A DNA stretch of 64,000 bases from an uncultured Acidobacteriota bacterium (GCA_963813185.1 CAWEYA010000019.1:44561-108560); one strand, 5' to 3'; shown: positions 1-54,962, numbered from the stretch's first letter. Program-made: numbers and translations. The notes: generated by a model not told the origin, from the sequence alone.

Positions 1-20
1 AAGCTAAAGCGTGCGCCACT
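1..20. repeat. Right arm of a type-A REP-like unit, cut by the window edge
   Basis: aagctaaagcgtgcgccact matches the right arms at 1893-1912, 2581-2600 and 5916-5935. Confidence 0.6.
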
Positions 21-88
21 AAACCCGCCCCAACGCCGCCCGGCTGCAATTGATTTCGCAATTTGAAAGCAGGAATCCTGGAGAATTC

Positions 89-265
89 ATGACCACAACT
101 TCCGCAACAACATCCTGGCAGTCCATCGGCCTTTACGTGCAGATCGCCGGAGCGGGCGCCTTCGTCGCCGGCATCGTCCTCAGCCTGCATCACTACGCGA
201 TCGGGGTCTGCTTCATCGCCGGCGCCGCCGCGTTTTACATCGGGAAAAAATTGAGGGCGTCGTAA
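89..265 (+). CDS. Small two-helix membrane protein (phage, function unknown)
   Basis: ATG at 89 with GGAG 5 nt upstream. Two hydrophobic stretches (IGLYVQIAGAGAFVAGIVLSL, IGVCFIAGAAAFYI). The ORF-track start at 50 is less likely. Confidence 0.5.
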   Translation: MTTTSATTSWQSIGLYVQIAGAGAFVAGIVLSLHHYAIGVCFIAGAAAFYIGKKLRAS

Positions 266-269
266 ATTT

Positions 270-337
270 GCTGTCGCCCGGGGATTTTTGCCGCGCGGGG
301 ACAGAAAACCCCCGCCTCTAAAGAGGCGGGCTGCAGC
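270..337. repeat. Type-C-like double hairpin downstream of the small ORF, possible terminator
   Basis: Perfect 8-bp hairpin cccgcctc-taaa-gaggcggg at 311-330. The outer gctgtc...ctgcagc resembles the elements at 7034-7114 and 51207-51290. No U tract. Confidence 0.4.
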
Positions 338-370
338 AGACTGCGAATCCTGCAATGAATTTGACACCCC

Positions 371-1824: not shown

Positions 1825-1912
1825 AGTGGCGCATGCTTTAGCTTGCGGGGTTGGGTGGGAGGACAACGCACCTTGCCGCAACCAAACCCCGCAAGCTAAA
1901 GCATGCGCCACT
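1825..1912. repeat. Type-A REPIN-like double hairpin (AGTGGCGCATGCTTTAGCTTGCGGGG arms)
   Basis: The 28-nt left arm and its reverse complement are separated by a 32-nt spacer. Each arm holds a small internal hairpin gcatgc-ttta-gcttgc. Confidence 0.9.
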
Positions 1913-2468
1913 CATGCGCCACCCAATTTGGATTTGACGCGCTGGACCACGGCCAGTCTTCTGGGCTCGCAACAAGCCGCGCGGCGACCGGATTGTTTTC
2001 AATGTACGCACGAATTTTCTGCCCCTCGCCGGGATTCCGTACCCAGTGATCAAACGATTCCTCCTGCCAGAAGGGCTCTCCGGTGCGGCCCAGGATCAGA
2101 TTCGCAGCGCGGGCCGAGGCACCCTTGATTTGCAACGTGATCCGCTCGAGCGGCGAATTTGGAGCGAGCAACACGTGAACATGATTTGCCATCACGGCGT
2201 AGGCGCGCAGCGCGAATAGTTGCCGCCGCTGGGCCTCCCGCAGCGCTGTGAGAAGCGCCTCGGCGACGCGGCCATCTTTCAGCCACATGGGGCCGGTTTG
2301 GGCCTTGTCCAGGGCGCGGTCATAGTTGACGAAGGCCCTGCCGCTGGATTCGGCTTCCCTTGGCAGGCGGAATTGCGCGGGGAGCGAGCCGTGAAGCCGC
2401 CAGGTGATGAAGATGTCTTGCCCGGCGGGGTGCCAGTGCGGCAGACGGCGCTGGTAGAATGTCACCAT
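1896..2468 (-). CDS. REP-associated tyrosine transposase (RAYT; IS200/IS605-like Y1 HUH family)
   Basis: N-terminal RRLPHW, HUH motif NHVHVLL, C-terminal tyrosine motif AYIENNPVAARLV followed by DWPWSS. Start moved to the internal ATG at 2468, because the ORF-track start at 2522 lies inside the repeat. Confidence 0.85.
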   Translation of the reverse strand: MVTFYQRRLPHWHPAGQDIFITWRLHGSLPAQFRLPREAESSGRAFVNYDRALDKAQTGPMWLKDGRVAEALLTALREAQRRQLFALRAYAVMANHVHVLLAPNSPLERITLQIKGASARAANLILGRTGEPFWQEESFDHWVRNPGEGQKIRAYIENNPVAARLVASPEDWPWSSASNPNWVAHEWRML

Positions 2469-2513
2469 TCGTGACACGGTAGCACTGGCAGGCAAGCTGG
2501 ACAAGAGGTTTCC

Positions 2514-2600
2514 GTGGCGCATGCTTTAGCTTGCAGGGGTTGGGCGGGAGGACATCGCGCCTTGCCGCAACCAACCCCCGCAAGCTAAAGCATGCGCCAC
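2514..2600. repeat. Type-A REPIN-like double hairpin
   Basis: gtggcgcatgctttagcttgcagggg ... cccccgcaagctaaagcatgcgccac; near-identical to 1825-1912. Confidence 0.9.
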
Positions 2601-2607
2601 CTGATCT

Positions 2608-2871
2608 ATGCGGCAAACGATCATTACCTGGCTCGGACGGCGGTTGCGCGGGCGTTACGTGCTGCTTCTCGAGGAAGAATTGGCGCGGCTGCGCGCGGAG
2701 AATCGCGCGCTGGTGAATTCGCTGCTCGGGACGGCGGGTTTTCCGCCGATTTCGCTTGAGGACGACGCACGGCGCGGCGTGGTGGGCCTGCCTCCGGTGC
2801 GCCGCCGCACCTGGACGCAGATCGCTCGCGAAAGGGAATTCGCGGCCGGGAAAAACGCATCTGAAAAGTGA
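2608..2871 (+). CDS. Hypothetical coiled-coil protein
   Basis: 87-aa ORF starting 8 nt after the repeat. Helical LLLEEELARLRAENRAL segment. No recognisable family. Confidence 0.4.
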   Translation: MRQTIITWLGRRLRGRYVLLLEEELARLRAENRALVNSLLGTAGFPPISLEDDARRGVVGLPPVRRRTWTQIAREREFAAGKNASEK

Positions 2872-2875
2872 GAAA

Positions 2876-3124
2876 TTACGCCTTCTTAATCAAGCGCACG
2901 ATCCACAGCAGGATGCAGGCGCCGACGAAGGCCACGATGATGGAGCCGATTAGTCCGCCGGCAAAAATTCCGAGCAGGCCGAAGACCCATCCACCAATTA
3001 TGGCGCCGATGATGCCGATGACGATGTCCATGATCACGCCGAACCCGCCGCCCTTCATTACTTTTCCGGCCAGAAAACCGGCGATTAAACCGACGATAGC
3101 CCACCACAGCAATCCACTTAGCAT
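2876..3124 (-). CDS. GlsB/YeaQ/YmgE-family small membrane protein
   Basis: 82 aa, MLSGLLWWAIVGLIAGFLAGKVMKGGGFGVIMDIVIGIIGAIIGGW... The Gly-rich transmembrane pattern is typical of this family. GGAGG lies upstream of the ATG at 3124. Confidence 0.8.
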   Translation of the reverse strand: MLSGLLWWAIVGLIAGFLAGKVMKGGGFGVIMDIVIGIIGAIIGGWVFGLLGIFAGGLIGSIIVAFVGACILLWIVRLIKKA

Positions 3125-3224
3125 GGCGCCTCCTGTTTTGCTTTGAGAATGAGCGGCTGTAATTGCAGCGCGCGGGGTCCGAAGACTGCACCTCTTTCTA
3201 TACCAGCTGTGTCGGAACGTCAAC

Positions 3225-3357
3225 AGTGGTGCATGCTTCAGCTTGTGGGTTTTCGTGTGGCCACGGCTGATGGTGGCAAGCGACGATAGCATCACAGCAA
3301 GCATGATGAGATGGTGCCGCGTGAGACTAACCCCCGCAAGCTGAAGCATGCGCCACT
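3225..3357. repeat. Type-A REPIN-like double hairpin with a long (about 78 nt) spacer
   Basis: agtggtgcatgcttcagcttgtgggtt ... aacccccgcaagctgaagcatgcgccact, between divergent genes. Confidence 0.85.
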
Positions 3358-4406
3358 GCGAAATCTGATGGCCGCAGACTGAATCTGTGCTACGAAAAAT
3401 ATGAATACACAGCTCAATGATGCTACCGACATGGCCATCTTGAACGGCGAGAATGAAGCGCCGAACGACGGCAGCATTGCGCCGCTGGACGGTTCCTCCG
3501 CCGCCAGCGGATTTACCGCAAGCGGCGCGCAGTCCGCGCAGGGCGTAACTGCCGCGCGCGGCTTGCCGCTCGGCATTGACGGCAAGCAGCCGGCGGCGAA
3601 TTTGCAGGAAGCGCTGGCCAAGCAGGCGCTCGGGCCGAACAACGAGCGGCTCGAGGAACTGCGGCCGGATCTAGTGAATGCGCTGCGCGAACTCGTGGTG
3701 CAGTATCGCGAAGAAGGCATCGTCGCGCGGCGGCACGAAATTCGCCGCATCCGCCAAGCGCGCCTGTTCTGGCAGGGCTTGCAATACGCGTGGTGGAATC
3801 CGCAGGACATGACCTGGCACCTGCCCTACGAATCGAAAATTTACGATGACAGCGCCGCGGCGGAAATGCCGCGCTACCAGTTTGTCACCAATCTCTATCA
3901 GGCCTTCGGCCTCTCCTTTATTTCCATACTCAGCCAGGACGTGCCGGCTACGCGCTTCTATCCGCAGTCGGCGCAGTCCATAGGAGACATCACCGCGGCG
4001 CGCGCCGCTTCCGAGGTGTGCGATCTCGTCGAGCAAAACAATCGCGTGCAGCATTTGCTCACCGGCGTGGCGTTTTATTTGTGGACGGACGGAAAAATCG
4101 GCGGCTACGTGCGTTATGTCGCCGACGCACAGCGTTTCGGTTCGCACGATGAGCCGGTGATCGAGGAACATTACGTTCCGCTGGGCGATGACGCCTATGT
4201 GTGCCCCGAGTGCGGCGCGGAGCAGGAAGTAGGCGACGGAAGCAGGAAGCTGCGGAAGCAGGATCGGCAAGGAGGCAGGCGAATTCGAGAGCCCGCGTCT
4301 CAGAGGAGGAGAATTCGCGATGGGCTCGAGAAGCTGCGGGCGATACCGGCGCTGACGGGGAACGTGCGACGCTCTACAGTTTGCACGGCAATCGCTGACT
4401 GGGTCA

Positions 4407-4434
4407 AAATCCGCAAGCTGAAGCGTGCGCCACT
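4407..4434. repeat. Solo right arm of a type-A unit inside the portal reading frame
   Basis: aaaatccgcaagctgaagcgtgcgccact; no matching left arm within 200 nt upstream. Confidence 0.7.
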
Positions 4435-5801
4435 GGTGGCCCCGGCTTGCTTCCACCAGTGATCTGCAAGAACTGCGGGGCCTCGCTCGGGCCGGAACAT
4501 TTCAAACCCGCGCCGCGCGTGGCGGTGCCGCTGATTACCGGAGTGCGGCGCGTCGCCAACGGGCAGGAAGTGATCTCCGTGGTCGGCGGGCTGGAGTTGA
4601 ATACGCCCGTGTGGGCGAACGAGATGCACGAGTATCCGTACCTGCAATGGTCAGATGGAGGTGCATCGCGCGAAACTCAAGGCCAGCTACCCGCACGCGG
4701 CGGATAAAATTCAGATGGGCGGGCCGCAATCGGCGGACGAAGTGTACGCGCGGGCGACGCGCGTGGCCGATTGCGCAGGGATTGCCAACGACGCATCCGG
4801 GCGACGCGCTGTTTAATTTAATTACGTTTTCGCGGACCTGGATACGGCCGTGGTCGTTCTACGCGATCGAGGACAAGAGCGTGCGTGACGCGCTGCTGGC
4901 GCTGTTTCCCGACGGCTGCTATGTGGCGTTACGCGGGCGACACGTACTGCGAATCGCGCAACGAATCCATGGATGATCGCTGGCGCGTGATGCACGCGCT
5001 TCCCGGCGACGGGCAGAACCGGCCGAGCGTCGGCGATTCGCTGGTGCAGATTCAGGAGCGCTATAACACGCTCTCCAATATTCAGGCGGAAACGTACGAG
5101 TACGGCATCCCGCCGATTTACGCCGATCCGCAGGTGCTCGATTTCGACGCGCTCGCGAATCAAACGGCCGAGCCCGCGGCGCATTATCCAGCGCGCGCGC
5201 GGCCCGGTCAGCCTCTGGCGGCGGGATTTTTTCAGCCTGCCCCGGCGCAAGTGCCGCCCGACCTGGTGCGCCATCAGCAGGAATTGATGGGGCCTGTCGC
5301 GCAATTTCTTACCGGACTTTTTCCCGCCGTGTTTGGCGGCGAAATGGAATCGGTGAAAACCGCGTCGGGCTACGCCATGGCGCGCGATCAGGCGCTTGGG
5401 CGCCTGGGACTGGTGTGGCGGCGCCTGAAAACTTTTTATGCGGACGTGATGCTGCTGTCGGTGGACTGCTTCCGCAAAAATCGTCCCGAGGACGCGGAGA
5501 TTCCCATTCTCGGGCCGGGAGGCGAATTCGAGTCGCGCTGGATTCGCCTGGCCGATTTGAAGGGCAACATTCAGGCGCATCCCGAAAGCGACGAAACTTT
5601 TCCGCGGCTGAAATCGCAACAGCGTGCCGTGGTGCAACAACTAATGGCGTCGTCCGACCCGATGATCCAGCAGGCCCTCGCCGATCCGTCCAACATCGGC
5701 TTCGTGAAAGGCGTGCTCGGTTTGTCGGACCTGGTCGTGCCGGGCGAAGATTCGCGCAACAAGCAGCTGCGGGAGATCGATCAGCTGCTGGCCGGCGCGC
5801 C

Positions 5802-5935
5802 AGTGGCGCATGCTTCAGCTTGCGGGGTTTGGTACGAAGGAGACGTATCGACACACACGGCCGAGGACACGTCGAGCCCACCTGTTACAGCCCGGGAGCG
5901 CGAGACAAAAGCCGCAAGCTAAAGCGTGCGCCACT
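5802..5935. repeat. Type-A REPIN-like double hairpin inserted in the portal gene
   Basis: agtggcgcatgcttcagcttgcgggg ... gccgcaagctaaagcgtgcgccact, 134 nt. The portal frame changes from phase 1 to phase 3 across it. Confidence 0.9.
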
Positions 5936-6312: not shown

Positions 6313-6980
6313 TAGAGCATTTGAATTTCAATAGTCATGCCAAGGTCTCGCCAAGGAGAGAACGATGAGCAGTGGAACGCAAGTGGATCTGGATTGGGCT
6401 GGGACGGATGCGGGGCAAGGCGGGGCGGGCGCTCCTCGGCGAGCGCGCCGAATAGTGGCGCGACGGGCGGGGCGTACCTGACGGACGAGGAAATTTTGGG
6501 GATTGACCCGCCTTCGCCCGACGGCGGCTTCGGCGCTCAGGCATGCCAGCAGAGCAACTCCGCGATGCGGGGCAGCAGAGACGATTCCTCGGCGGCGAAA
6601 GACGGCCCTGCGGATATGAAAGCGCCCACAGGCTGAACCATGTGCAAGCGGCCAGATGCCGGCGTGGATGGCGACGCTGGCGGCGGATCCGAAGCATGGC
6701 GGCGAGGCGCAGCAGCTTTGGCGCGAGCATCAGGAATTTCGCGCGGCGTTTGCTTCTCCGGAGGAGGCGCGGGCGATCAAGGAATTGTTGCCTGGAGGTG
6801 TGCGCGATGTTTTGACGCTGCGCGAGGCGACGCAGTCCGTGGACAGGATCGACGCGGCGATTTTTTCCGGCGATGCGCGGGCGCAGTCGGAAGTGGTGGC
6901 GGAGCTGGCGCGCGCAAATCCGGCGGCGTTTCGGTCGATGTTTGCCGAGGCGGCGAAAGTTCTGGCGGGGATGGGGACAC

Positions 6981-7027
6981 GAGGCAGTGAGGCAGGAGGC
7001 AGGGAAACAGGAGGCAAGGAGTCAGGG
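6981..7027. repeat. GAGGCAG-type 7-8 nt tandem array inside ORF 6656-7795
   Basis: gaggcagtgaggcaggaggcagggaaacaggaggcaaggagtcaggga. Confidence 0.6.
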
Positions 7028-7033
7028 AATCCC

Positions 7034-7114
7034 GCTGTAGCCCGCCTCTTCAGGGGCGGGGAAGTTGGCGCGAACGTTGAAGAAATCCCCGGGTCTAAAG
7101 ACCCGGGCTACAGC
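7034..7114. repeat. Type-C REPIN-like double hairpin inside ORF 6656-7795
   Basis: gctgtagcccgcctcttcaggggcgggg ... ccccgggtctaaagacccgggctacagc. GTAGC/GCTAC clamp, one small hairpin per arm. Confidence 0.8.
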
Positions 7115-7140
7115 AGTTCGCCCCAGCCAGCGTTGGACGA

Positions 7141-7209
7141 ATCACGAATCACAAATCGCCAGTCACTAGCCGCGAATCACGAATCACAAATCACGAATCA
7201 CCAGTCACC
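7141..7209. repeat. nnnTCAC heptamer array (about 10 units) inside ORF 6656-7795
   Basis: atcacga atcacaa atcgcca gtcacta gccgcga atcacga atcacaa atcacga atcacca gtcaccc; strict period of 7. Confidence 0.85.
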
Positions 7210-7278
7210 CTTCGCAGGAGCTCAGGGCGAGCCAGTCACTAGTCACCCTTCGCAGGAGCTCAGGGCGAGCCAGTCACC
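7201..7278. repeat. Tandem 31/38-bp direct repeat
   Basis: ccagtcac(tagtcac)ccttcgcaggagctcagggcgag occurs twice, followed by ccagtcacc. Confidence 0.85.
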
Positions 7279-7784
7279 GCATTTCGATCCTGCGGCCTAC
7301 GCGGCCTTTGAGCGGGCTACCAACGACGCTGTCGCGCGCGACGTGCGCGGGTCGATCGGCGACACTCTGGCGCGCGTGATGCCCGAAGGAGTGGCGGAGG
7401 GCGCCGCGCGGCGCATCGGCGAAGATATTTTCAACGAAGTGCATCGCGCGCTGGCGGCGGACCGCACGCTCTCCGAGCAGGTCGCCGGCGTGCTGCGCGA
7501 CCGGCGATTTGGCGGCGCGGAACAGCAGCGCGTCGCGGCGCTCCTCGCGGGACGCGCCAAGCAGCTGGTGCCCAGCGTGGCACGGCGCGTCATCGGCGAA
7601 TGGACCAGCACGGTGTTGAACACGGCGCGATCCAAAGCCGCGCGGCAAGCGGCCGCGGCGTCGCGCGTCGATATCGCCGCGCCCGGCGGCTCGCTCGACT
7701 CTATGCCCCTGCGTCAAATGTCGCCGCGCGAAGTGAACTACGCGTCGATGAGCGACGAAGAAATTCTTGGGAATGCGATGATGA

Positions 7785-7916
7785 GTGGCCAGTGACGCAG
7801 TGGCTAGTGGCTAGCTAAGAACCAAACTCAATTACGCCGAGGTTTTCCGGGACCGCAGCGGCAGTGATTCACGGTTCGCAAATCGCTAGCCACTCGCCAC
7901 TAGCCACTAGCCACTC
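7785..7916. repeat. Inverted heptamer-array pair (GTGAnnn 7785-7815, nnnTCAC 7868-7916)
   Basis: gtggccagtgacgcagtggctagtggctagc ... ttcacggttcgcaaatcgctagccactcgccactagccactagccactc. The stop codon at 7793-7795 lies in the first block. Confidence 0.85.
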
Positions 7917-7993: not shown

Positions 7994-9265
7994 ATGGCAC
8001 AACAAAACAACGCACAAACCGTCGCGTTGCAACTGGAGAAGGTGCGCGACAAAGTGCCCCTGCTCTACGAGCGCGACGATGTTCTGCTCAGCATGATCCA
8101 GCAACGCGGTGACGTCGAAAAAGTCAGCTCGCGCAATATGCGCTTGCCCTTGCAACTCATTCCCGGCGGCAAGGCCGGCAGCTACAGCGCCGACGGCGGC
8201 GACCTGGGACTCGGCTCGGGCAGCACCTACGACGTGGCGCAAGTCTCGCCGATTTTCTTCCGTTTCGCGGTGCAAATCACCAAGCTCGTCGAATACGCCT
8301 CGAACGCGCGCGAGAAGGCCATCGAAAATGCCGTGAAACGCGAAATCGCCAGCGGCATGAAGCAATTCCGCGCCTTCCTTGACAAAGTGATCCAGACCGC
8401 CGGCAACGGCGTGCTGGGCACGATCAGCGCGATCGCCAGCAACACGTTCACCATGGCCGTGCCCACGGGCGCGGCGCTGGTCTACGTGGGGCAGACGATT
8501 CAGATTTACGATCCGACGCTCACGACCAACCGCAACGTCGCGGCCGGCGTGGTCACCAGCGTGACCGCGGCCGATCCGATATCCTCGACGCAAACCATCA
8601 CCGTGGACAATGTGCCTACGGGTACGTCCGTCAACGACGTGATCGTGCACGACGGCCTGACCGGCTCTTCGCCCGTGTCGCTCTTCGGCATCAAGTATCA
8701 TCAGAACAACGCCACCACCGGCACCTGGCTCAACCTCAACCGCGCAACATATCCGCAGCAATTGCAAACGCCGCGCGTCAATGCGGGCAACGCCGCGCTG
8801 GTTCCCGGCCACGCGCGCCTGGCGATCAACAAAGTCCGCAAAGCGCTGGGCATCAACCATCTCGGCAAACTGATCGCCTACACCAGCGTCGAGCAGGAAC
8901 ACGCCTGGGAAAATCTGGGCATCACGGTTTCCCAAATAGTAAAAGAAGGGCCGGGAGGCCGCGCCAGCGACCTGGACATGCTCTTCTCCGGAAAGAAAAC
9001 GATGTCCGGCATTCCGATCAAAAGTTCGGTGAACGCCGATCAGACGCGCGTGGATTTTCTCGACCTGTCGCACTGGGGCCGCGCGGTGATGAAGGACATT
9101 GATTTCTTCGAGGTGGGCGGGCAAACCGTGTTCCCGATTTATGGCGCCAGCGGCGGCATCTCCGCGTCCTTCATCTTCTATTTCGACACCGGATTCCAGG
9201 TGTGGAACGACTCCCCGCGCAGCGGCAGCTTCATCGATTCGCTGGCGCGGCCGAATGGGTACTAG
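7994..9265 (+). CDS. Major capsid protein (HK97-fold inferred)
   Basis: 423-aa intact ORF after the portal and scaffold. AAGGAG 6 nt upstream of the ATG. Size and position are typical; no motif could be verified without a search. Confidence 0.6.
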   Translation: MAQQNNAQTVALQLEKVRDKVPLLYERDDVLLSMIQQRGDVEKVSSRNMRLPLQLIPGGKAGSYSADGGDLGLGSGSTYDVAQVSPIFFRFAVQITKLVEYASNAREKAIENAVKREIASGMKQFRAFLDKVIQTAGNGVLGTISAIASNTFTMAVPTGAALVYVGQTIQIYDPTLTTNRNVAAGVVTSVTAADPISSTQTITVDNVPTGTSVNDVIVHDGLTGSSPVSLFGIKYHQNNATTGTWLNLNRATYPQQLQTPRVNAGNAALVPGHARLAINKVRKALGINHLGKLIAYTSVEQEHAWENLGITVSQIVKEGPGGRASDLDMLFSGKKTMSGIPIKSSVNADQTRVDFLDLSHWGRAVMKDIDFFEVGGQTVFPIYGASGGISASFIFYFDTGFQVWNDSPRSGSFIDSLARPNGY

Positions 9266-9275: not shown

Positions 9276-9333
9276 GTGAATGGTGGCTGGTGATTGGTGA
9301 CTGGTGAAAACCAAGTCGCCGGTCACCAGCCAC
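9276..9333. repeat. Short heptamer-array hairpin after the capsid stop
   Basis: gtgaatggtggctggtgattggtgactggtgaaaacc ... ggtcaccagccac; gtggctggtga pairs with tcaccagccac. Confidence 0.8.
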
Positions 9334-9357: not shown

Positions 9358-9503
9358 GTAGCACAGACTTCAGTCTGTGGGTTTCCATTTGATCTTGGCT
9401 GGGGGCCCCGTCCAAGCTGCGCGCCGCTTTTCGGTTCACGCAGGTATACGTGGCGCACGCTGGGCGAAATTGACAAAACCCCACAGACTGAAGTCTGTGC
9501 TAC
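9358..9503. repeat. Type-B REPIN-like double hairpin (GTAGCACAGAC)
   Basis: gtagcacagacttcagtctgtgggtt ... aaccccacagactgaagtctgtgctac. The spacer begins ccatttgatcttggct, as in 31412-31531. Confidence 0.9.
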
Positions 9504-10417: not shown

Positions 10418-10895
10418 CAATTTGTTTGGCGAGGCCAATTACCGGGCGGTGTGGGGATGGTCGCGGCTGGATTGGATTGGGGGGAAGTGGGAGGACCGCG
10501 ATCCTGTTTCGGGGGCGCTGGTCCGCGAGGTGGTGGAGCTGCGGCGCGAGCCGAAGTATGCGCCGCACAATCGCTGGCACATCGAGCGGTGGATGCCGGC
10601 GGAGAGCTACGGTTCTCCGGCCGAGTGGCAGACGCGGACGATCGAAATTGTGAATGGGCGGAACGTTCCGGCGCTGGGGCCGTATCCTTCGCGTGGGGAC
10701 TACGAGCACTGCTTCACGCTGGAGGGGCCGCGCGGCGAGTTCGTGCAACTGACGCCGGCGGTGGCGCGGCACATCGCGCGCGCGATTGAAACCAGTCGCG
10801 GCGTTCCCGCTGCGAAGAAAAGGGAAGCGCTCGAGGAGCGCACGCGGCGCGAGGAGCGCGAGTACGATGCGTACGCGGATGCAGTGCTGTCGTGA
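10386..10895 (+). CDS. Hypothetical phage protein
   Basis: 169-aa ORF with a GTG start. A possible older start at GTG 10294 is displaced by the 50-bp duplication. No recognisable family. Confidence 0.5.
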   Translation: MARALELAGGRNLFGEANYRAVWGWSRLDWIGGKWEDRDPVSGALVREVVELRREPKYAPHNRWHIERWMPAESYGSPAEWQTRTIEIVNGRNVPALGPYPSRGDYEHCFTLEGPRGEFVQLTPAVARHIARAIETSRGVPAAKKREALEERTRREEREYDAYADAVLS

Positions 10896-11090
10896 CTAGT
10901 GGCTAGTGACTGGTGACTAGTGGCTAGTGAACTGAGAATCGTGACGGATGACTCGTGAACGAAGGCGTGAGTCCTGATCGGCGATGAGGGATTTGAGATT
11001 TACGAATACCGGAATGTTTGTGCCATTGGCGGAGTCTGGTGATGTGGGTTTTGACCAGTCACCAATCACTAATCACTAGCCACCAGTCAC
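10892..11090. repeat. Inverted heptamer-array pair (GTGAnnn 10892-10970, nnnTCAC 11055-11090)
   Basis: gtgactagtggctagtgactggtgactagtggctagtga... and ccagtcaccaatcactaatcactagccaccagtcac. Confidence 0.9.
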
Positions 11091-11945: not shown

Positions 11946-14900
11946 GTGGAAATGACGAGACTGACGAAACATTTTCTCGCACTGGCGGTGGTCGCGCTGC
12001 TGGCGTGCGGCGCTAACGCGCGCGCCCAGGGATCGCGCAAGGATGACATCGTGTTCAACGCGCAGGGGCGGCCGATGGCGGGCGCATCCGTGCGCGTGTG
12101 CACTTCCGCGGCCACGGGGCAACCGTGCTCGCCGCTGGCGCTGATTTACTCCGACGCGGGGCTGACGCAGGCGCTGGCCAATCCGACCTCGACCGACGGC
12201 CTGGGAAACTACAATTTTTACGCCGCGCCGGGACGCTACGAGATCGAGATCAGCGGCCCTTCCATCACAACCAAGCAGATCCCCAACGTGATTCTGCCCA
12301 GCGATCCGACCGCGCCCACCTTCACCACCGTCACCACCACCAGCGGCATTTCCGCGTTTTCGCTTTCGCTCAGCGGCAATCTCACCGTGAACGGTTCGGC
12401 CGCGGTGACCGGATCGCTCACCGTGGGCGGCAATCCCGTGCCCTCCACCAATCAGGATAACCAGTGGAACGGCGCGCAGCGCTTCAAGGGGCCGATTCCG
12501 TGGCGGGACATCTCGGCCTACATGCCTCCCGGGGGCTGCGATAATTCGGCGATCAACATCAATCAAAATACCTCGGGGAGCATCAGCGCGACTTCCACCG
12601 CTCTGACTCTCAGCGCGGATCTCGGATTCAAGAATGGTTGCGGCATTTTTGTGCAGGCCGCCGGTGCGACCTCGACTCTCGCCGCTCCCACCGTCGGCAC
12701 GCCGGCGCCGATTGTCTACGGCGGAACCGGCTCAACGACGGTTCACTACAAAGTAGCCGCCATCGATCCGCACCTCGGAACGTCAGCGGCCAGCTCCGCG
12801 ATCACGGTTACCACGGCGCCGGCCACGCGAACGCCCCTGGACATGGTTGCGATTTACTGGGCCTACGACGCGGGCGCCGTCGGCTACCTGATCTGGAGCG
12901 ATGCCACGGGTAGCTATACGCCGCTCGGATATTCGTTTCAGTGCTCGCAATTCTCCTCGGGCGGAGTTTGCGGCTACATTGACAAAGGGGCGGAAACTTT
13001 CAACTTCTCCAAGTCTTCGATGTTTCCGTTTTTTCCGTACACGCCGCCCGCGTCGGCCACGGCGGACGCGCTGGTTACCACGATTGTTTCAGGAGCGGGA
13101 ACACTCAGCCTGGTTCTTGCCAACGCGGCAACCAACTCATCCGGCGCCAATGCGTATGTCTATCCCGATGCCAGGCCCTTCTTTGATTCCGCGCTGGCTG
13201 CCGCTGCCGCGGACGGCACAAGCCTGAATCGCAGCCAGGTATTCATCCCCGAAGGACTTTGGTATTTGTCTGGAATCGATTTTCCGGCGAGCCCGGCGGG
13301 AGTCTCCATCGTTCAGAGCGGCGCGATTCAATTATTCGGGCTTCCGATCTTCGGCACCGTCGGAGGCGGTTCCGCAGGTTCGGGCGGGGTGTCCTGGTTC
13401 GGCAATGGCGGCGCTTATACTTCGGGCTTCTGGACTTTGTCGACCGCCAGTATTTTCGCGCAAACGCAAGTGGGCGCGATTTTCGTGGCCTACGGTAGCC
13501 CGAACAATATGGATCTGGAACGCCTGACTCTCAGCAGCAGCGAGGACGTCATCGTGGAAGATTCGCTGGGCGCCCTGACCATGAGGGATGATGAGGTGAT
13601 AGAGAATCAGGGAAGTGGCGTCGGATTGCGAATCGATGCGAATACCTATTTCAGCCAGTTCTATCATGTGGACTGGAACAGCTCAAACAACTCCAACACT
13701 CTGATTCCGCTGGTTTGGTATACCGGCCTGACGTCTTCCTTGCAATCCGCGGTATTTGGTTTTCACGACAATGCCTTCCGCTACCACACGATCAGGGATG
13801 ACGACATTTTCGGCGGTAACGCCTTCGGCACGATCGCCATTGATGGGACCACCAGCATCGAGAGCAACTGGGATCAAGGCCTGATCACAGCCGTGGCCGG
13901 CGGTCCCGGGAGCGTTTCCATCAGCGGGCAGGCGAGCGACAACGACCCCAACATACCGGACCAATCACTGCAATACGATTACGGACCGACCGGCACGCTT
14001 CCCGGCACCACCTGGAATGTGACGGCGAACTTGACGGGCTTTGTGCACTACGTCTGGGGCGCGCAGTTCGTCGGGAACGCCACCAGATGCATAGGTTGGA
14101 CATTCAACAACGCCAGCACGCTCCTGAACGGGCAGTGGGGAAGCGTGGACGGCACAACTTACGCAGGGTGCGACCTGGGCGCAACCTCGCTGGGATACGA
14201 TGTCCAGACTTCCGGAATTCTGACCAGCGGCGGGAACGATCCCGCGGTGGCCGCTCTGGAGCCCATGCTCGGCCATGTATTCCGCCGGCCGGTCCCCAGC
14301 GTGACGGGAACCGGCAGCGGATCGCTTTCCGCCGGCACCTATTATTTCGTTGCGACCGTCCTGGACGCGGCAGGCCGCGAGGGCGGGGCCAGCCAGGAGA
14401 TTTCGCAGACGGTCGGCGCAACCAGTTCCATCAACTTGTCGGTGGCGGAGGCCATTTACTTTCCTACTAGTTGCAACATTTATTATGGAACCACGCCTGG
14501 AGGCGAGGCGCACTTCTTCAATTCCACCGCCGTGACCAACGGCACTTGCACGTTTACGTTCACGTCCGCTTCCGGCACGGCGGGAACGCCGCCTGTGGTC
14601 GGCAACGCCATGCGTTCCTGGCTCAATCAGGAGAACAACGGCAACTCCTGTTTGTTCTGCGGACTCGGCGGCGGCTTGGGAACCGGCTTCCTGGGCTTCA
14701 ATCTCACAGCGTCGCAATATTCCGCGCTGCCGGCGGGCGTGCAATTTCCCTTTAATGGCGGCGTCCATAGCTATAAATTTTATTCGGCCTCCGAGACCAC
14801 CGCTCCCGCGGGGGTTGCCAACGTCGACCAGCTGTATGCCGACTCTACCGCGCACCGCTGGAAAAAAATCGAGAACAACGGCGCCGCGCAAACGGTGGGA

Positions 14901-15353: not shown

Positions 15354-15455
15354 TAGCACAGCCACTCCTGGCTGTGCGGTTTTGCATGCTGAACACGCAG
15401 GCTGCGAATCCAGCGACAATCGCAAAAACCGCATAGGCAAGAGTGCCTGTGCTAC
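15353..15455. repeat. Type-B REPIN-like double hairpin (GTAGCACAGCC)
   Basis: gtagcacagccactcctggctgtgcggtttt ... aaaaaccgcataggcaagagtgcctgtgctac. It overlaps the last base of stop codon 15351-15353. Confidence 0.9.
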
Positions 15456-15900: not shown

Positions 15901-16187
15901 GGCGTGACCGGAGGGCGTGAGTTGTGATTCGTGATTTGTGAATGCCAAGCCTACGCGACGGCGGAGAGTGACTGGAGGCTGGTGACTAGTGGCTAGTGAC
16001 GAGTGACTAGTGGCTAGTGAAACGATTTCTCCATAACGCTGCGTGAATGGATTGAACAGGTCTTTCCGCATGAATTCATCTCAAATTTGAATTTCAAATC
16101 ACGGTTTAGAGGCTGCGAGCGTTACTCAAACCTTTCTGCTCGCGAACGGTTCTCACGAATTGCGAATCGCCATTCACGAATCACGCG
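15897..16187. repeat. Inverted heptamer-array pair (GTGAnnn blocks 15897-15943 and 15968-16020; nnnTCAC blocks 16081-16103 and 16151-16187)
   Basis: gtgaggcgtgaccggagggcgtgagttgtgattcgtgatttgtgaa; gtgactggaggctggtgactagtggctagtgacgagtgactagtggctagtga; tctcacgaattgcgaatcgccattcacgaatcacgcg. Confidence 0.85.
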
Positions 16188-16234
16188 AATGAAACGACGA
16201 TCTGGTGAGCGCCTGGACAAATTATTAAGCACCT

Positions 16235-33328: not shown

Positions 33329-33347
33329 TTCTCCTCCGAATAGGGCA

Positions 33348-40301: not shown

Positions 40302-40402
40302 GTAGCACAGCCACTCTGGGCTGTGCGGTTTTGTATATCGGACTATGGTCTACCGGCCTGCCGACACTTGAAAACCCGCACAGGCAGGAGTGCCTGTGCT
40401 AC
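40302..40402. repeat. Type-B REPIN-like double hairpin (GTAGCACAGCC / CACAGGC arms)
   Basis: gtagcacagccactctgggctgtgcggtttt ... aaaacccgcacaggcaggagtgcctgtgctac. Confidence 0.9.
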
Positions 40403-47849: not shown

Positions 47850-47923
47850 GTAGGACAGCCACTCTTGGCTGTCCCCGCGATATTGCCGCGGCGCCGGAGG
47901 ACAGCCAAGAGTGGCTGTCCTAC
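47850..47923. repeat. Type-B REPIN-like double hairpin (GTAGGACAGCC) between the two cytochrome b genes
   Basis: gtaggacagccactcttggctgtcc - ccgcgatattgccgcggcgccg - gaggacagccaagagtggctgtcctac; the arms are perfectly complementary. Confidence 0.9.
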
Positions 47924-48898: not shown

Positions 48899-48993
48899 GT
48901 AGGACAGGCTTCAGCCTGTCGGTTTGACGAGGTGAGATCCAAAAACCAGACAGGCTGCCCTTCCCTGCGCTCAGGATAAAAAGCCTGTCCTAC
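48899..48993. repeat. Type-B REPIN-like double hairpin (GTAGGACAGGC) between the Rieske and cytochrome b genes
   Basis: gtaggacaggcttcagcctgtcggttt ... gacaggc-[tgcccttccctgcgctcaggataaaa]-agcctgtcctac. It touches the Rieske stop codon. Confidence 0.9.
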
Positions 48994-49595
48994 TACACCG
49001 GCAAATACGCCCCTGGATCGTTGAACTGATTGACTCCGGCGCGCGGGTCATCCATGAACAGCTTGCTCGTATCCACCACAATTTTTCCGGTCGGATCGAG
49101 AGCGATCTTGGCTCGGTCCATGGGCCGCGGCGCGGGCCCTTCAAAGTTGACGCCCTCGCTGTCGTAACCGCTGCCGTGGCAAGGACACTTGAATTTGTTT
49201 TCCGCGGGCTTCCATTCCGGAGTGCAGCCGAGGTGCGTGCAGCGCGCGAAAATCACGAAGATGCGGTCCGGCTCGCGAACCACCCAGGCCCGGTTGGTCA
49301 TGAGGAAGCGCTGGTCAATGCCGATGGAAAAATCCGCGGGGTAACCGATATTGAAAATGGTATTGGGTTCGTAGAGCGCGCGCGGGAAAAAAAACCGCAA
49401 GAACATCAGCAGGTTGATGCCCAGGTAGCCGTAAATCATCCCCCAAATGACGCGCCTCCGCATGGGATCCGGCGGGTCCGCGCTCTCTTTTGGTTTTGCC
49501 GCCGGCTTGGGTGCGGCTGGCGGTTTTGGTGCTGTTACTGCTGCGATTTTGGCTGCTGGGGGAGCCGCAGTACTTCCTTCTACAGGGTCGGCCAT
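48993..49595 (-). CDS. Rieske [2Fe-2S] subunit
   Basis: CTHLGC ... CPCHGS cluster-binding boxes and an N-terminal transmembrane helix. Confidence 0.9.
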
Positions 49596-51133: not shown

Positions 51134-51206
51134 TAATCTTCTCCCCACAATGAATTGCTGAATCTGTGGATACTTTCAATCATGCGGCCGTCCGGCGTGA
51201 TTACAG

Positions 51207-51290
51207 AACCCCCCCACTGAAGAGGCGGGCTACTGCAATACTCCAATCGTCGCGCGTGCCGTAGCACGGGCTTTCAGACCCGGGGATTTT
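51207..51290. repeat. Two type-C arms facing outward (CTAC, 27 nt, GTAG)
   Basis: aacccccccactgaagaggcgggctac ... gtagcacgggctttcagacccggggatttt. Confidence 0.7.
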
Positions 51291-51299
51291 CTGTCCCGG

Positions 51300-52014: not shown

Positions 52015-52689
52015 TCACTCCTCCAACAAATATTCGCCGACCATCCAGGCCGCCGTCAAAAATACCACGTCAAAGCATGCCAGAAACGTCAACCATACCA
52101 GGGACAATTCGGAAGGGTCGCGCAGGACTCCGATGGTCGCCTCCGTGCTGGCGATCAGCACCGGGGCCAGCACCGGGAGGAGCAAGAGCGGAAGAAGCAA
52201 TTCGCGTAGGCGCGCCTGCGCGGCGACCGCGGAAAATACCGTGCCTGTGGCGGCCAGTCCAATCGTGCCGAGGGCGAGGACGAGGAGAAGCGGCCCGAGG
52301 ACTGGGAGGATCGCGACGTTGTAGAGCACCGCGAACACGGGCAGCAAGATGACTTCGACAAGGAGCAGGAAGAGAAAATTGGCGGCCATTTTTCCCGCGA
52401 GGATGCTGAAGGGATCGATGGGCGCGAGGCGCAGCGCGGCCAGCGTGTCATTCGTCTGCTCCCGCAAAAAGGAAGACTGCAACATCAGCGAACCGGCAAA
52501 TAAAAATGCCAGCCACAATAGTCCGGGTCCAAAGCGGCGCGATTCGGAGGAAGTCGGATTGAATGTAAAGCTGAACAGTACGATCACGATCAGAACGAAA
52601 ACAACGGTTGTGCCCAGCAATTCCCGCGAACGGAACTCGGTCCGTAGTTCCTTGGCGAGAATCACGCCGGTGGCGCGCGCCAGTGTCAT
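52015..52689 (-). CDS. ccmB: Haem exporter CcmB
   Basis: 224-aa polytopic protein between ccmA and ccmC; 4-nt overlap with ccmA. Confidence 0.8.
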   Translation of the reverse strand: MTLARATGVILAKELRTEFRSRELLGTTVVFVLIVIVLFSFTFNPTSSESRRFGPGLLWLAFLFAGSLMLQSSFLREQTNDTLAALRLAPIDPFSILAGKMAANFLFLLLVEVILLPVFAVLYNVAILPVLGPLLLVLALGTIGLAATGTVFSAVAAQARLRELLLPLLLLPVLAPVLIASTEATIGVLRDPSELSLVWLTFLACFDVVFLTAAWMVGEYLLEE

Positions 52690-53399
52690 GGGGCGCTCTC
52701 TTCCCCGCCGTCGCGGACAGCGGCCATGACCAGAATTTCATTTGGATTGCCGCCGGCACCGGAGTCATGCGTAATTTTTCCGCCGTCCAGGCGGATCGCG
52801 CGCGTGACCGCGCCCTGCGTCTCATTTCGCCCGTGCGTGCTCATCAGAATCGTGCAGCCCGAATCGCGCAGCCGCTGGATGGTCGCTGCGAGCCAATGCT
52901 GGCCTTCGGGGTCGAGGCCGGTGCCCGCTTCATCGAGGAGAAGCAATCCGGGCGAGGCGAGCAGAGCGCGGGCAATCGAGAGGCGCTGGCGCATGCCGCG
53001 TGAAAATGTGCGCACCAGGTCCGTGGCGCGGCCGGTAAGGCCGACCGGCTGCAGCGCTTGCCGGGCTTTTTCGGCGGGATTTTCCAAGCCGAACAATTTT
53101 GCGAAGAAGATGAGATTTTCCTCGGCGCTCAACTCTTCGTAGAGCAGCGTGTGATGCCCGACCATTCCGATCCGGCTCTTCACTTCTTCGAGTGAAATCG
53201 GATTTTCTCCTGAGTCGAATGTGATTTTCCCGCGCGAAGGCCGCGTCAGCTGCGCCGCAATCTTGAGCAGCGTGGTTTTGCCCGATCCGTTGTGGCCCAC
53301 AAGGGCAACGCATTCGCCGGCGGCAATCTCAAGCGAGATGCCCCGCAGCGCCAGGCGCATCCCGTAACGCTTTTCGACTTCGCTGAATTGGATACTCAA
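52686..53399 (-). CDS. ccmA: Haem exporter ATPase CcmA
   Basis: Walker A GHNGSGKTT, signature FSRGMRQRL, Walker B LLLLDEA. Start set to TTG 53399 (LSIQFSEVEKRYG); the longer ORF-track N-terminus looks non-coding. Confidence 0.85.
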   Translation of the reverse strand: MSIQFSEVEKRYGMRLALRGISLEIAAGECVALVGHNGSGKTTLLKIAAQLTRPSRGKITFDSGENPISLEEVKSRIGMVGHHTLLYEELSAEENLIFFAKLFGLENPAEKARQALQPVGLTGRATDLVRTFSRGMRQRLSIARALLASPGLLLLDEAGTGLDPEGQHWLAATIQRLRDSGCTILMSTHGRNETQGAVTRAIRLDGGKITHDSGAGGNPNEILVMAAVRDGGEESAP

Positions 53400-53481
53400 T
53401 CCAGGGGGTGGGCCACCACGGGCGCCTTCGCCTGTGCCGCCATTCGGGGAAGATGCATGCGGTGTGGACACGCGCGACGGC

Positions 53482-54783
53482 TCAGCCCTGGACCAGATCG
53501 CGCAGCAATTGCTCCGCGCGACCACGCTCCAGGGCATATTCCGCGTCCGTAATTGTGCCGGCCTGGCGCCGCAATTCGAGACGCAGCAAGGTGTCTTTCA
53601 GGGAGTCCAGATTCGAGTTCACTTCGCGAGTGACCTTCTCCACCGGCGGCGGCGCGGGCGCGGCTTGCACAGCCTTCGCCTGGGCGGCTTTCTGCGCCTT
53701 GCGGCCTTTGGGAGCCGCGGGAAGTGAGGGAGCGCTTACCAATTCAGCAACCGGCTTGCGCATCAGCAGACCCACGCCTACGGCGAAGATGGCCGCAAGG
53801 CCGCCGAGCAAAATCCACTTTTCATCATCGAGGCGCGCCGGTGCGGTTTCAATAGTCGATTCCGGGCCGGAGTCCCGGCCGTTCACCTGATCCGGGGAGG
53901 AAGAGGCCGAATTTTCCGTGGGGGGAGGAGCGGTCCCCGAAACCTTGACGTCAAATCCCATTCCGGCTTTCAAAGATTCCTTTGAAAATACGTTGTAGCC
54001 TTGCTCCGTGCCCGCGGAGTTGAATCCCGCGCTGGCCACTTGCATGGTCGGCGGAATGACCAGCAGGACGCGTTGCGCGTCATAGGTAGAGGATTCGCGG
54101 AATTGGGCCTGGTTGCCGGTGTAAGGAACAATGTAGGAGATGCGCACGCCGTTTTGCCCCGGCTGAAAAGCGTACGAAATGGAGTAACGGCCCTTGCCTT
54201 TGTCGATCGTCCCCTGGCGCACGGGCATGCCCGAAGGACCGAACGTCGAAACCTGGTCCAGGTCGGCGCCTTGCGGAATGGTGAACTCGAAATTTCCGTC
54301 CTGCTTGAAAAAAGCGGCGGGGGGATTCGAGTTGTTCTGGACGGAATATTCCTCGCCGACCATCAGTTTGTCGCCGTTGGGCTGGAAAACGAGCAGGCGC
54401 AGCGGAACCTGGATGGCGGCGGGATTGGTGGTCGGTTCGTAGATTGTGACGTCGACGTTTGCAGTGCCCGGCGTGAGCGGCTGGTGAAAGAAAACGCCGC
54501 GATAGACCGCCCGGATCAACATGGGGCCCTGGCCAATGCCCGGGTTGTCAAAATGAAAGCGCCCGTCGGCGTCCGATTTGGTGCTGGCCACTACCGACAT
54601 GCCGCCCTGCAACTGGATGAGCAGGACATCCACGCCCGCTGTCGCCGTATTGTTGTTCGTGCCGTTGTGCACGATGCCTGTAACCGTTCCGGCTTGAGCA
54701 GCGGCCGCGGAAACGAGCAACAACAGTGCGACGATGTATACGCGCCGCGAGGCAAGCAGGCGGTTCCACGATTTCATGAGCAA
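53482..54783 (-). CDS. Secreted CarboxypepD_reg-like domain protein with a transmembrane anchor and cytoplasmic coiled coil, embedded in the ccm cluster
   Basis: Signal peptide, GTVTGIVHNG...DADGRFHF, transmembrane helix WILLGGLAAIFAVGVGLL, C-terminal helical tail. Confidence 0.6.
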   Translation of the reverse strand: MLMKSWNRLLASRRVYIVALLLLVSAAAAQAGTVTGIVHNGTNNNTATAGVDVLLIQLQGGMSVVASTKSDADGRFHFDNPGIGQGPMLIRAVYRGVFFHQPLTPGTANVDVTIYEPTTNPAAIQVPLRLLVFQPNGDKLMVGEEYSVQNNSNPPAAFFKQDGNFEFTIPQGADLDQVSTFGPSGMPVRQGTIDKGKGRYSISYAFQPGQNGVRISYIVPYTGNQAQFRESSTYDAQRVLLVIPPTMQVASAGFNSAGTEQGYNVFSKESLKAGMGFDVKVSGTAPPPTENSASSSPDQVNGRDSGPESTIETAPARLDDEKWILLGGLAAIFAVGVGLLMRKPVAELVSAPSLPAAPKGRKAQKAAQAKAVQAAPAPPPVEKVTREVNSNLDSLKDTLLRLELRRQAGTITDAEYALERGRAEQLLRDLVQG

Positions 54784-54888
54784 AGTAAACTCTCGTAAAT
54801 TGAAAACATTCGGTCGCTTCTTCCACGAACTATCATGTGGAGCGTATGCAGAACACTTGAAAATAGCCGGACCCTCGCGGCCGGTTTT

Positions 54889-54962
54889 AGTGGCACAGGC
54901 TTCAGCCTGTGGGTTTTAGTGCTTGCAAGGTCCAAACCCCACAGGCTGAAGCCTGTGCCACT
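54889..54962. repeat. Type-B REPIN-like double hairpin (GTGGCACAGGC)
   Basis: agtggcacaggcttcagcctgtgggtttt - agtgcttgcaaggtcc - aaaccccacaggctgaagcctgtgccact. Confidence 0.9.

Follow-up and report, generated by a model that had tools for sequence, protein, structure and literature searches.

A 64,000-nt stretch of DNA from an uncultured Acidobacteriota bacterium (GCA_963813185.1, CAWEYA010000019.1:44561-108560), referred to here as the window, is crowded with short double hairpins, and the question raised by this locus is what these units are and what has copied them. A reading made from the sequence alone (the sequence-only reading) had counted at least 22 units with a GTAG or GTGG head, had divided them into three sequence types with compensatory stem changes, and had likened them to the repetitive extragenic palindromic (REP) sequences of E. 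coli. The analysis presented here indicates that they are very probably REP sequences, arranged mostly as REPINs (inverted REP doublets), and that they are non-autonomous single-stranded DNA (ssDNA) elements copied by a REP-associated tyrosine transposase (RAYT) encoded in the window. The RAYT gene (1896-2468, minus strand), which settles the identification of the units as REPINs, is absent from the sequence-only reading. The window is chromosomal DNA of about 60% G+C which carries housekeeping genes (those for DnaE, CcmF, NadE, isocitrate dehydrogenase and a multihaem cytochrome, and others), and the host is an Acidobacteriota bacterium of the Terriglobia, near 'Candidatus Acidoferrales'.

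The arms of these units share one plan, in which the head GT[AG]G is followed by a stem of 7-8 bp, a 4-nt loop of either TTCA/TTTA (TTYA) or CTCC/CTCT (CTCY), the return stem and a G/T-rich tail (GGTTT or CGGTTTT), and most arms have an inverted partner ending in C[TC]AC 15-110 nt away. When the heads are aligned, T2 and G4 are invariant and G1 is nearly so, and a 7-bp helix follows. Three degenerate patterns were compared with 100 dinucleotide-preserving shuffles of the window: the class with a 7-bp stem and TTYA loop (pattern GTRGSRCRKRCTTYAGYYTGYS, up to two mismatches) gave 21 matches, the class with an 8-bp stem and CTCY loop gave six and the CCCGSSTC stem class gave five, each against 0.00 expected, which makes 32 matches where none is expected. 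A covariance model built from 17 window arms and run with its filters off added arms 3226+, 4433-, 5803+, 5934-, 16739-, 21765+ and 21911-. The window total is about 24 REP or REPIN units with about 42 arms, which upholds the earlier count, and all of the units that had been named individually are present at their positions. Rather than three types, at least six families (A to F) were distinguished by stem sequence: family A with stem CACAGAC or CACAGGC; family B with an 8-bp stem, CACAGSCA, and a CTCY loop; family C with stem GACAG..; family D, the largest in the window with 11 arms, with a GTGG head, CGCATGC/GCTTGCG and a TTYA loop; family E with a GTAG head, stem CCCGSSTC and a TTYA loop; and family F with stem CACACRC/GCCTGTG.

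The RAYT is a Y1/HUH protein of 190 aa with the motifs NHVH, WQ and YIENNP. It matches PF01797 (Y1_Tnp) in Pfam with an E value of 2.4e-6 and scores only 21 bits with the IS200 model, for which the cutoff is 55. A sequence search of the PDB places 4er8 first, the complex of E. coli TnpA-REP with a REP hairpin, and the predicted structure (pLDDT 71.5) also has 4er8_A as its best fold match (E 5.4e-8), with IS200/IS605 transposases next. The HUH (NHVH), W-Q and YIENNP motifs are invariant in an alignment of 13 homologues, as are H96, H98 and Y155, and dN/dS values of 0.09-0.25 show that the RAYT is under purifying selection, as would fit an active enzyme. Homologues number 2826 at E <1e-5, several of them labelled RayT (JGI) or 'Candidatus Acidoferrales' (NCBI). 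The gene is bracketed by near-identical family-D REPINs, one directly upstream (2514-2600) and one directly downstream (1826-1911, GTGG CGCATGC TTTA GCTTGCG ... CCAC). The downstream unit overlaps the 3' end of the gene, as the last 16 nt and the stop codon lie inside its REP arm and the stop TAG is made up of REP loop and stem. The RAYT is probably the cognate transposase of the window REPINs.

The genomic context of the RAYT was examined in orthologues of 61-99% identity (L001-L008, L208 and L209; L numbers denote loci of other genomes) and in the IMG/VR fragments L126 and L127; L009 takes in only structural genes of the surrounding phage-derived cluster. In every context examined the RAYT occupies the same slot, with the gene for the large subunit of a phage terminase on one side and a portal-like gene (about 900 aa) on the other, and the same small cytochrome c gene is found at the far end of the cluster wherever the contig extends that far. 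A REPIN is present on both sides of the RAYT in all six loci read (the window and five further lineages, L001, L002, L003, L005 and L007), with the flanking stem being CGCATGC/GCTTGCG in the window, L001 and L003, CGCAGGC/GCCTGTG in L005, GACGGGC/GCCTGTC in L002 and CACAGGC/GCCTGTG in L007. The four flanking arms of one genome have an identical stem, and the flanking type is also a dominant type elsewhere within the same locus. The change of stem in the flanking arms is therefore concerted and not a matter of independent mutation, and the REP stem type shifts together with the RAYT lineage. Between genomes, dS of the RAYT exceeds that of the capsid and terminase genes next to it by a factor of 2-3 (for window versus L209, the RAYT has 1.10 and the capsid gene at 7994-9265 has 0.36); this could be due to weaker codon constraint, or to exchange or a separate history of the RAYT-REPIN cassette. 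A scan of IMG/VR with the RAYT protein alone found no relative, and a scan with the alignment found just two fragmentary viral contigs, which carry the same cluster.

The gap between the terminase and portal-like genes is a cargo site (window 1826-3400; L002 6500-10000; L007 5400-10000; L208 7400-10000), which holds the RAYT, an 87-aa open reading frame (ORF) and a Transgly_assoc (GlsB/YeaQ-like) gene, and in L002, L007 and L208 also one or two MFS/BT1 transporter genes.

It had been proposed that the stems always differ in paired fashion and that their covariation reflects selection on structure. For the 17 window arms, 90.8% of cells pair compared to 81.5% in shuffles, and there are 13 double-change cells compared to 4.3. 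A larger alignment of 150 arms (124 distinct) from many genomes gave 96.0% of cells paired compared to 90.2%, 58 double-change cells compared to 18.5 +/- 3, and a covariation score of 0.233 compared to 0.143. The compensatory signal thus stands out from shuffled controls, as none of 500 shuffles reached this score, and slid controls were all far lower. The proposal holds in part, as covariation is seen for only three of the seven stem pairs, namely pair 1 (C-G/G-C), pair 2 (A-T/G-C through G.T) and pair 6 (G-C/A-T), and pair 5 is unpaired in 27 of the 124 distinct arms. Abundant families have conserved G.T, T.T or C.C mismatches; at stem position 5 the 11 window arms of family D (GTGG CGCATGC TTYA GCTTGCG) keep a T.T mismatch and family F has C.C, contrary to the statement that changes are always paired.

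To determine which mismatches are tolerated, arms were detected by a search that ignored pairing at the variable positions. G.T or T.G mismatches on the GTAG-headed strand were found in 120 copies at 47 loci (32 haplotype positions), and A.C or C.A mismatches in 16 copies at 13 loci (12 haplotype positions). As G.T and A.C are each one transition away, yet G.T is the commoner, it appears that the GTAG-headed hairpin, on one strand, must fold. One series of stems runs from CACAGGC/GCCTGTG (123 copies) through CGCAGGC/GCCTGTG with its G.T (40 copies) to CGCAGGC/GCCTGCG (14 copies), with three copies of the A.C alternative, and follows the classic compensatory path. Judged from these sequence comparisons, the pattern points to a strand-specific single-stranded hairpin as the probable selected unit, and what had been called 'selection on structure' would best be understood as selection for being recognised and replicated by the RAYT on one strand, and not as selection for a host RNA structure.

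In total 106 doublets were found, most of them with no mismatches between the two arms, even where the arms carry internal G.T or T.T. Folded as ssDNA, the units have a long inter-arm hairpin as their minimum-energy structure, with z scores of -3 to -11.6 relative to shuffles. Unlike arms (CC/GG versus GC/GC) had been noted in the units at 15353/15455 and 40302/40402, and these were confirmed; across genomes, seven of the 19 family-B doublets are mixed, with one arm CC/GG and the other GC/GC. In such doublets the arms pair perfectly within themselves, and two mismatches arise when they form the long hairpin. The mixed form recurs in several genomes, which fits the copying of the doublet as a unit.

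Confinement of the units to the window, which would have spoken against the sequence-only reading, was not observed. The covariance model finds 145 arms in 99 kb of RAYT-context loci and 393 arms in 912 kb of mixed loci, and an exact-pattern scan of one genome per GTDB species matched at least 117 stretches. Among the matches listed, these are overwhelmingly metagenome-assembled genomes of Acidobacteriota (Terriglobia, Acidoferrales/Acidiferrales, Bryobacterales and 'Acidobacteriaceae'), in which copies lie at many separate positions on large contigs. A RAYT gene was sought in the 117 genome loci around these listed copies and none was found there, showing that those copies are dispersed away from the gene, as would be expected of REPINs. 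Arm density is 0.73 per kb in the cluster part of the window (1-26 kb) and 1.24 per kb in the cluster loci of relatives, compared to 0.24 per kb in the chromosomal part (26-64 kb) and 0.18 per kb in 80 orthologous loci, so the home cluster of the RAYT is enriched three- to seven-fold. In several more distant relatives (56-86% protein identity; L144, L185, L186 and L206) the density is zero, indicating that the REP family is restricted to one lineage. The GT[AG]G head with its hairpin, the inverted doublets, the RAYT flanked on both sides and the dispersal in relatives together bear out the REP-like identity that had been suggested.

Matches to the 22-nt REP pattern were also seen in four Hymenobacter records (L065, L070, L097 and L125), as a tandem array of four direct copies with a 32-nt period on a contig of a Promineifilum bin (L073), and scattered in Binataceae, Verrucomicrobiia, Saccharimonadales and other bins (L019, L055, L098, L117 and others). 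These matches in non-acidobacterial bins may be related REP families, mis-binned contigs or chance.

Turnover of individual units was followed in 80 metagenome loci orthologous to the ferrochelatase region of the window. At the 48899 site, eight genomes have a plain spacer of 36-62 nt, and the window and seven others have a family-C REPIN, whose position within the spacer varies among genomes. The window and L128, its closest relative (97% protein identity), are otherwise 99-100% identical at this site, and as a 23-nt loop insert is the sole difference between them, this insert arose as a discrete recent event. The 47850 site holds a REPIN in the window, L130 and L181 and an unrelated native spacer in L128 and many others, and the 51205 site holds a REPIN of family A, B, D or E, or none, depending on the genome. 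At the 54890 site the spacer (...TGCTTGCAAGG.CCAAACCC) is kept across orthologues, and both arms read CACAGGC/GCCTGTG in the window, L130 and L134 and CGCATGC/GCTTGCG (family D) in L128 and L181. This 72-nt REPIN with its palindromic spacer occurs at many loci in many genomes with several stem types, so that the switch at 54890 is likely to have come about by replacement or conversion from other copies.

A linker between two CxxC motifs of the portal-like ORF (window 4233-4450; L002 5276-5445; L007 4176-4405; L003 8040-8114; L127 3026-3100) is hypervariable and holds another REPIN family in each genome, and in L003 and L007 the ORF remains open despite the REPIN. A native GTAG is present at this spot in several genomes, which is suggestive only of insertion beside a pre-existing GTAG.

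Taken together, a mechanism can be proposed in which each GT[AG]G-headed arm, when exposed as ssDNA (for example at the replication fork), would fold into its hairpin of 7-8 bp, and the RAYT would recognise this hairpin with the 5' tetranucleotide and then cleave and rejoin the strand. Binding, cleavage and the single-stranded route would follow the paradigm of E. coli TnpA-REP and IS200/IS605, and the excess of G.T over A.C mismatches on the GTAG-headed arm lends indirect support to the binding and cleavage of single-stranded REPs. The doublet would be the copied unit, and new copies would often land in the same permissive intergenic spots, with turnover at these hot spots being fast as copies are inserted, lost or swapped for another family. 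The stem sequence of the dominant family would drift along with the RAYT lineage, and stem changes would be fixed only if the GTAG-headed hairpin folds, so that A-T to G.T to G-C would be tolerated and A.C would not; the two arms would also be kept mutually complementary.

Several points weigh against this interpretation. Mobility is what we infer from comparisons between genomes, and among the orthologous cluster and chromosomal sites there was none that was cleanly empty and revealed where exactly an insertion begins and ends: the intergenic cluster sites are occupied in all genomes compared, often by another family, and at the chromosomal sites filled and empty spacers differ through replacement and not through simple insertion. 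The repeat copies were amplified from masters and are non-independent, which means that fewer compensatory events took place than the shuffle statistics suggest. With respect to the enzyme, the best NCBIfam model, REP_Tyr_transpos, gives 72 bits, below its curated cutoff of 80. The length of 181-190 aa and the motifs NHVH, WQ and YIENNP match the signature of TnpA-Y1 subclass 2.4 (PMC6006769, Table 1), and an assignment to this subclass, which equals Bertels group 4, would fit at the motif level only. Furthermore, the REP families number at least six and only a single RAYT was seen; families B and E, which differ in stem length or sequence, may need other RAYTs. Lastly, all 11 family-D arms of the window are located within the phage-derived cluster, although family-D REPINs are present at chromosomal sites in the close relatives L128, L129 and L181.

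The repeats could instead be hairpins evolved by the host for regulation, such as bidirectional intrinsic terminators or mRNA-stabilising 3' structures, in which case they would be immobile and selected as RNA. Many units do immediately follow a stop codon or separate convergent genes, GGTTTT comes after the hairpin, a scan for terminator-like features accepts two arms, and tolerance of G.T would fit an RNA helix as well. Those two arms (40305+ and 54894+) are however two of about ten between 40 and 56 kb, the GGTTT(T) tails are mostly too short, and units also occur in frame within ORFs and within likely operons (Rieske/cytochrome b). Rfam 15 gives no window matches at gathering thresholds. 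Near-identical copies at unrelated loci in many genomes, the presence, absence and family replacement at orthologous sites, and a RAYT flanked by the same repeats all speak for copied elements, making host-evolved hairpins quite improbable, although the units may have a secondary effect on the host, such as exaptation.

Two further explanations also treat the repeats as mobile or phage-related. As short, non-coding, multicopy units with inverted termini which are polymorphic between genomes, they resemble miniature inverted-repeat transposable elements (MITEs), that is, deletion derivatives of a DDE-type insertion sequence moved via terminal inverted repeats, and the nearby Y1 gene would then be a coincidence. 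This is scarcely credible, as at six independent loci the REP type of the respective genome is found to either side of the Y1 gene, the units conserve at their ends the GT[AG]G that is characteristic of REPs, and each arm is itself a hairpin; no target-site duplications or direct repeats flank the window units inspected, and no DDE transposase was found among the window ORFs scanned, which lie outside 35.6-61 kb. Alternatively, the repeats may be part of the phage-derived cluster, for example as sites at which a prophage or gene-transfer-agent-like element is packaged, replicated or regulated, the chromosomal copies being secondary. The cluster is indeed 3-7 times denser in arms (0.73-1.24 compared to 0.18-0.24 per kb), the RAYT is a fixed resident of it, and the window arms of family D are all inside it. 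Yet in dozens of genomes ordinary chromosomal sites hold hundreds of copies, with RAYT and phage genes far away, and units interrupt or extend structural ORFs of the cluster. The REP families of the cluster also differ between genomes in which its structural genes are 85-92% identical, which is better explained by colonisation than by a cis-acting site, and this explanation is accordingly very improbable.

The cluster itself extends from position 1 to approximately 26 kb and encodes a terminase, the portal-like gene, a major head protein, large virion structural proteins and an SLT lysozyme. Matches in PHROGs are to terminase, major head protein and virion structural proteins only, Pfam gave no matches for ten further cluster proteins, and no integrase was found among the window ORFs scanned, nor any tRNA. 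A podovirus-like cluster is also present in L002, L003, L005, L007, L009, L040, L126, L127, L208 and L209. Across Acidobacteriota genomes, gene order and one chromosomal neighbour (the small cytochrome c gene) are conserved even where the RAYTs are merely 61-66% identical, and strong purifying selection is evident from dN/dS values of 0.04-0.055 (capsid gene) and 0.07-0.11 (terminase). The cluster has the appearance of an element that has long been resident and under selection, and could be a domesticated prophage or resemble a gene-transfer agent; it may also be a temperate phage family with a fixed attachment site. Compared to L001, L003 and L005, the window lacks 41 nt of the terminase gene near 1323-1338, and the gene is thereby divided into ORFs 371-1489 and 1471-1812. 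The portal-like gene (about 900 aa, within 3401-5922) is broken into three ORFs. These interruptions may be signs of decay in the local cluster copy, or errors of assembly.

It is unlikely, but worth stating, that the RAYT-REPIN system is functionally or evolutionarily coupled to its phage-derived home cluster. One possible form is that a particle carries the RAYT and its flanking REPINs between lineages, which, if true, would explain both the RAYT dS, 2-3 times as high as in the neighbouring genes, and the switches of specificity from lineage to lineage. Another possible form is that the packaging of DNA or the regulation of the cluster draws on nicks made by the RAYT at REPs, or on the REPINs as such. 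In a weaker form, the RAYT may prefer to act in cis, and the home cluster would then be a REPIN nursery, a read-out of RAYT action.

The REPIN-RAYT system of the window is of a known kind. It shares with that of P. fluorescens SBW25 (Bertels and Rainey 2011, PMC3116915; group 3/subclass 2.5) a doublet of inverted REPs with a spacer as the presumed replicating unit, a RAYT flanked by its own REPINs, several families per genome, a RAYT locus that is the same in the contexts examined, and mostly extragenic copies. The SBW25 motifs are DH[LF]H and YI[VI]ANP (PMC6006769, Table 1) where NHVH, WQ and YIENNP are found here, and the present system differs further in its Acidobacteriota host, the phage-derived cluster in which the RAYT is found and a much higher local density of up to 1.24 arms per kb. 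The REP/BIME (bacterial interspersed mosaic element) repeats of E. coli and their TnpA-REP (4ER8; group 2/subclass 2.2) are alike in the 5' GTAG with an imperfect hairpin and in conserved stem mismatches. TnpA-REP is the best fold and sequence match of the window RAYT, yet they share only approximately 19% identity, the HUH and Y motif signatures are different, and the repeats here have short stems of 7-8 bp and fixed TTYA or CTCY loops, with GTGG heads being common. IS200/IS605 elements (IS608, ISDra2) share the Y1/HUH fold and, as proposed here, the recognition of an ssDNA hairpin with an adjacent guide or target tetranucleotide; in contrast to these, the RAYT gene is at one conserved locus in the contexts examined and apparently not scattered, and the hairpin elements far outnumber the gene.

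The motifs of the enzyme would also fit subclass 2.4 (Quentin et al. 2018, PMC6006769), which has NH[IFV]H, WQ and YIxNNP in a protein of about 190 aa (subclass length ~194 aa), REP sequence intruding into the RAYT gene (here at its 3' end and stop codon), and 'long' or 'double-foot' REPs with unit ends marked by GT[AG]G and C[TC]AC. This subclass has been described mainly from Cyanobacteria and Bacteroidetes (PMC6006769), and a strong repeat association was reported only for groups 2 and 3, with the abundance of flanking repeats in group 4 being modest (Bertels et al. 2017, PMC5581495). Compared to subclass 2.4/group 4, the doublets described here keep two separate arm hairpins and are very abundant. 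The GTAG REPs of Stenotrophomonas maltophilia (Di Nocera et al. 2013, PMC3733652) are also GTAG-tagged stem-loops which form dimers, have in-frame intragenic copies, fall into subfamilies with paired stem differences and have a 'REPtron' arrangement of the transposase gene. For cultured Acidobacteria (Terriglobus, Koribacter, Acidobacterium and Granulicella), the same study reported only RAYT-like 'TIRYT' genes with unrelated TIR flanks and no GTAG REP families (PMC3733652), whereas the lineage of the window has true GT[AG]G REPs. No paper on a RAYT fixed inside a phage-derived cluster was found in the literature, with search coverage being incomplete.

REPINs and RAYTs have been argued to be long-lived, vertically inherited replicators in bacterial genomes. 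To our knowledge, almost all detailed work on them concerns Pseudomonas and enterobacteria, and we know of no transposition assay. The window and its relatives now extend true GT[AG]G REPIN populations to soil Acidobacteriota, and the interest of the system lies in the new phylum, the co-variation of RAYT and stem, the strand-asymmetric signature and the phage-cluster home. Natural experiments are provided by RAYT lineages with switched flanking and genome-wide stems, and by orthologous sites which vary by presence, family and the 23-nt insert. The asymmetry between G.T and A.C predicts which strand and hairpin are read by the enzyme, and these observations supply concrete oligonucleotide pairs for biochemistry. 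A RAYT fixed in a REPIN-saturated, phage-derived cluster was unexpected, and raises the question of whether such clusters help RAYT-REPIN systems to spread or act.

The remaining units of the cluster are as follows, from left to right. A decayed family-E unit (271-334) is located upstream of the terminase gene, with its right arm at 310-334 (GCAG CCCGCCTC TTTA GAGGCGGG). Beyond the RAYT are a family-D REPIN at 3226-3356, the left arm of which is the variant TGCATGC/GCTTGTG, and a degenerate solo arm at 3365-3393 on the minus strand (GTAG CACAGAT TCA GTCTGCG). A solo family-D arm (4404-4433, minus strand) lies in the hypervariable linker of the portal-like ORF, where relatives have other REPIN families, and a family-D REPIN (5803-5934) lies at the 3' end of that ORF. 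The family-E REPIN at 7037-7111 (GTAG CCCGSSTC TTYA ...) is 75 nt, or 25 codons, long and in frame within ORF 6656-7795; in-frame REPINs are found in hypervariable linkers of two cluster ORFs. A family-A REPIN (9358-9503, CACAGAC/GTCTGTG) is downstream of the major capsid gene, and the family-B REPIN at 15353-15455, with its 8-bp stem, CTCY loop and unlike arms, abuts with its head the stop codon of ORF 11946-15353. These are followed by a family-A REPIN with a degenerate left arm (16233-16325), a degenerate solo arm on the minus strand (16710-16739, TTGG CGCAGGC TTCA GCCTGTA), a family-D REPIN with a degenerate right arm (21765-21911) and a family-F REPIN (22466-22561, CACACRC/GCCTGTG) with the C.C mismatch at stem position 5. 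A family-B REPIN with nested loop inserts in both arms (23836-23942), a solo family-F arm on the minus strand (24107-24136) and a mixed doublet at 24158-24306, which combines family-F arm 24158(+) with arm 24306(-) carrying a GC-rich loop insert, are located towards the end of the cluster.

In the chromosomal part, the family-A REPIN at 31412-31531 occupies the entire gap between two convergent genes, exactly from stop codon to stop codon, with the isocitrate dehydrogenase stop being the TAG of the GTAG head at 31412. Its right arm has a loop insert of about 25 nt. The family-B REPIN at 40302-40402 has unlike arms and is almost unchanged in L128. Two family-C REPINs follow, one at 47850-47923 (GACAGCCA CTCT TGGCTGTC) and the other at 48899-48993 (GACAGGC/GCCTGTC), between the Rieske and cytochrome b genes, with the 23-nt loop insert in its right arm. 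Two family-E arms, 51233- and 51261+, stand head to head at 51205-51292, and the 72-nt family-A REPIN with a palindromic spacer is at 54890-54961 (CACAGGC/GCCTGTG). Side effects of the repeats on the host are visible in these in-frame copies and in stop codons, which are abutted or supplied by REP heads at 15353, 23836, 31412/31531 and 48993 (contacts at 15351-15356, 23833-23839, 31412-31415, 31531-31534 and 48990-48995).

Modules shared between units had also been noted. The spacer start CCATTTGATCTTGGCT is indeed common to the units at 9358 and 31412, and the loop insert common to the units at 31412 and 48899 was located in their right-hand arms, 31531(-) and 48993(-). A wide scan for hairpins with long loops was noisy and was used only for such recurrent loop-insert modules. 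The module is 23-28 nt long (TTTTAYCCYGAG...GRAGGGC) and recurs inside REP loops of differing stem families and genomes; window copies are at 31490-31515 (arm 31531-), 48955-48977 (arm 48993-) and 23851-23875 (arm 23836+), and copies in relatives are in L208 (4827 and 4612), L209 (846), L140, L141, L068 (5692), L148 (5852) and L175 (624). Its B-family version ends GCCCCTGCGAGGGGC. Arms 23942- and 24306-, and several relatives, have a second loop insert, which is GC-rich (CCGCCGCGGCGG-like).

Tandem heptamers (GTGACTA, GTGACTG, GTGATTC or their complements) make up another class of repeats. Their arrays of 4-10 copies are found at no fewer than 14 mostly intergenic sites of the window, often adjoining REPINs, and also in L003 and L127. 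Between 1 and 26 kb these are at 7137-7209, 7886-7915, 9276-9308, 10892-10930, 15967-16020, 16569-16595, 23092-23133, 23241-23272 and 24552-24585, and in the chromosomal part at 33347-33378, 33422-33467, 38575-38606, 38640-38672 and 38817-38848. Within ORF 6656-7795 the heptamers encode ITNHQSP-like repeats.

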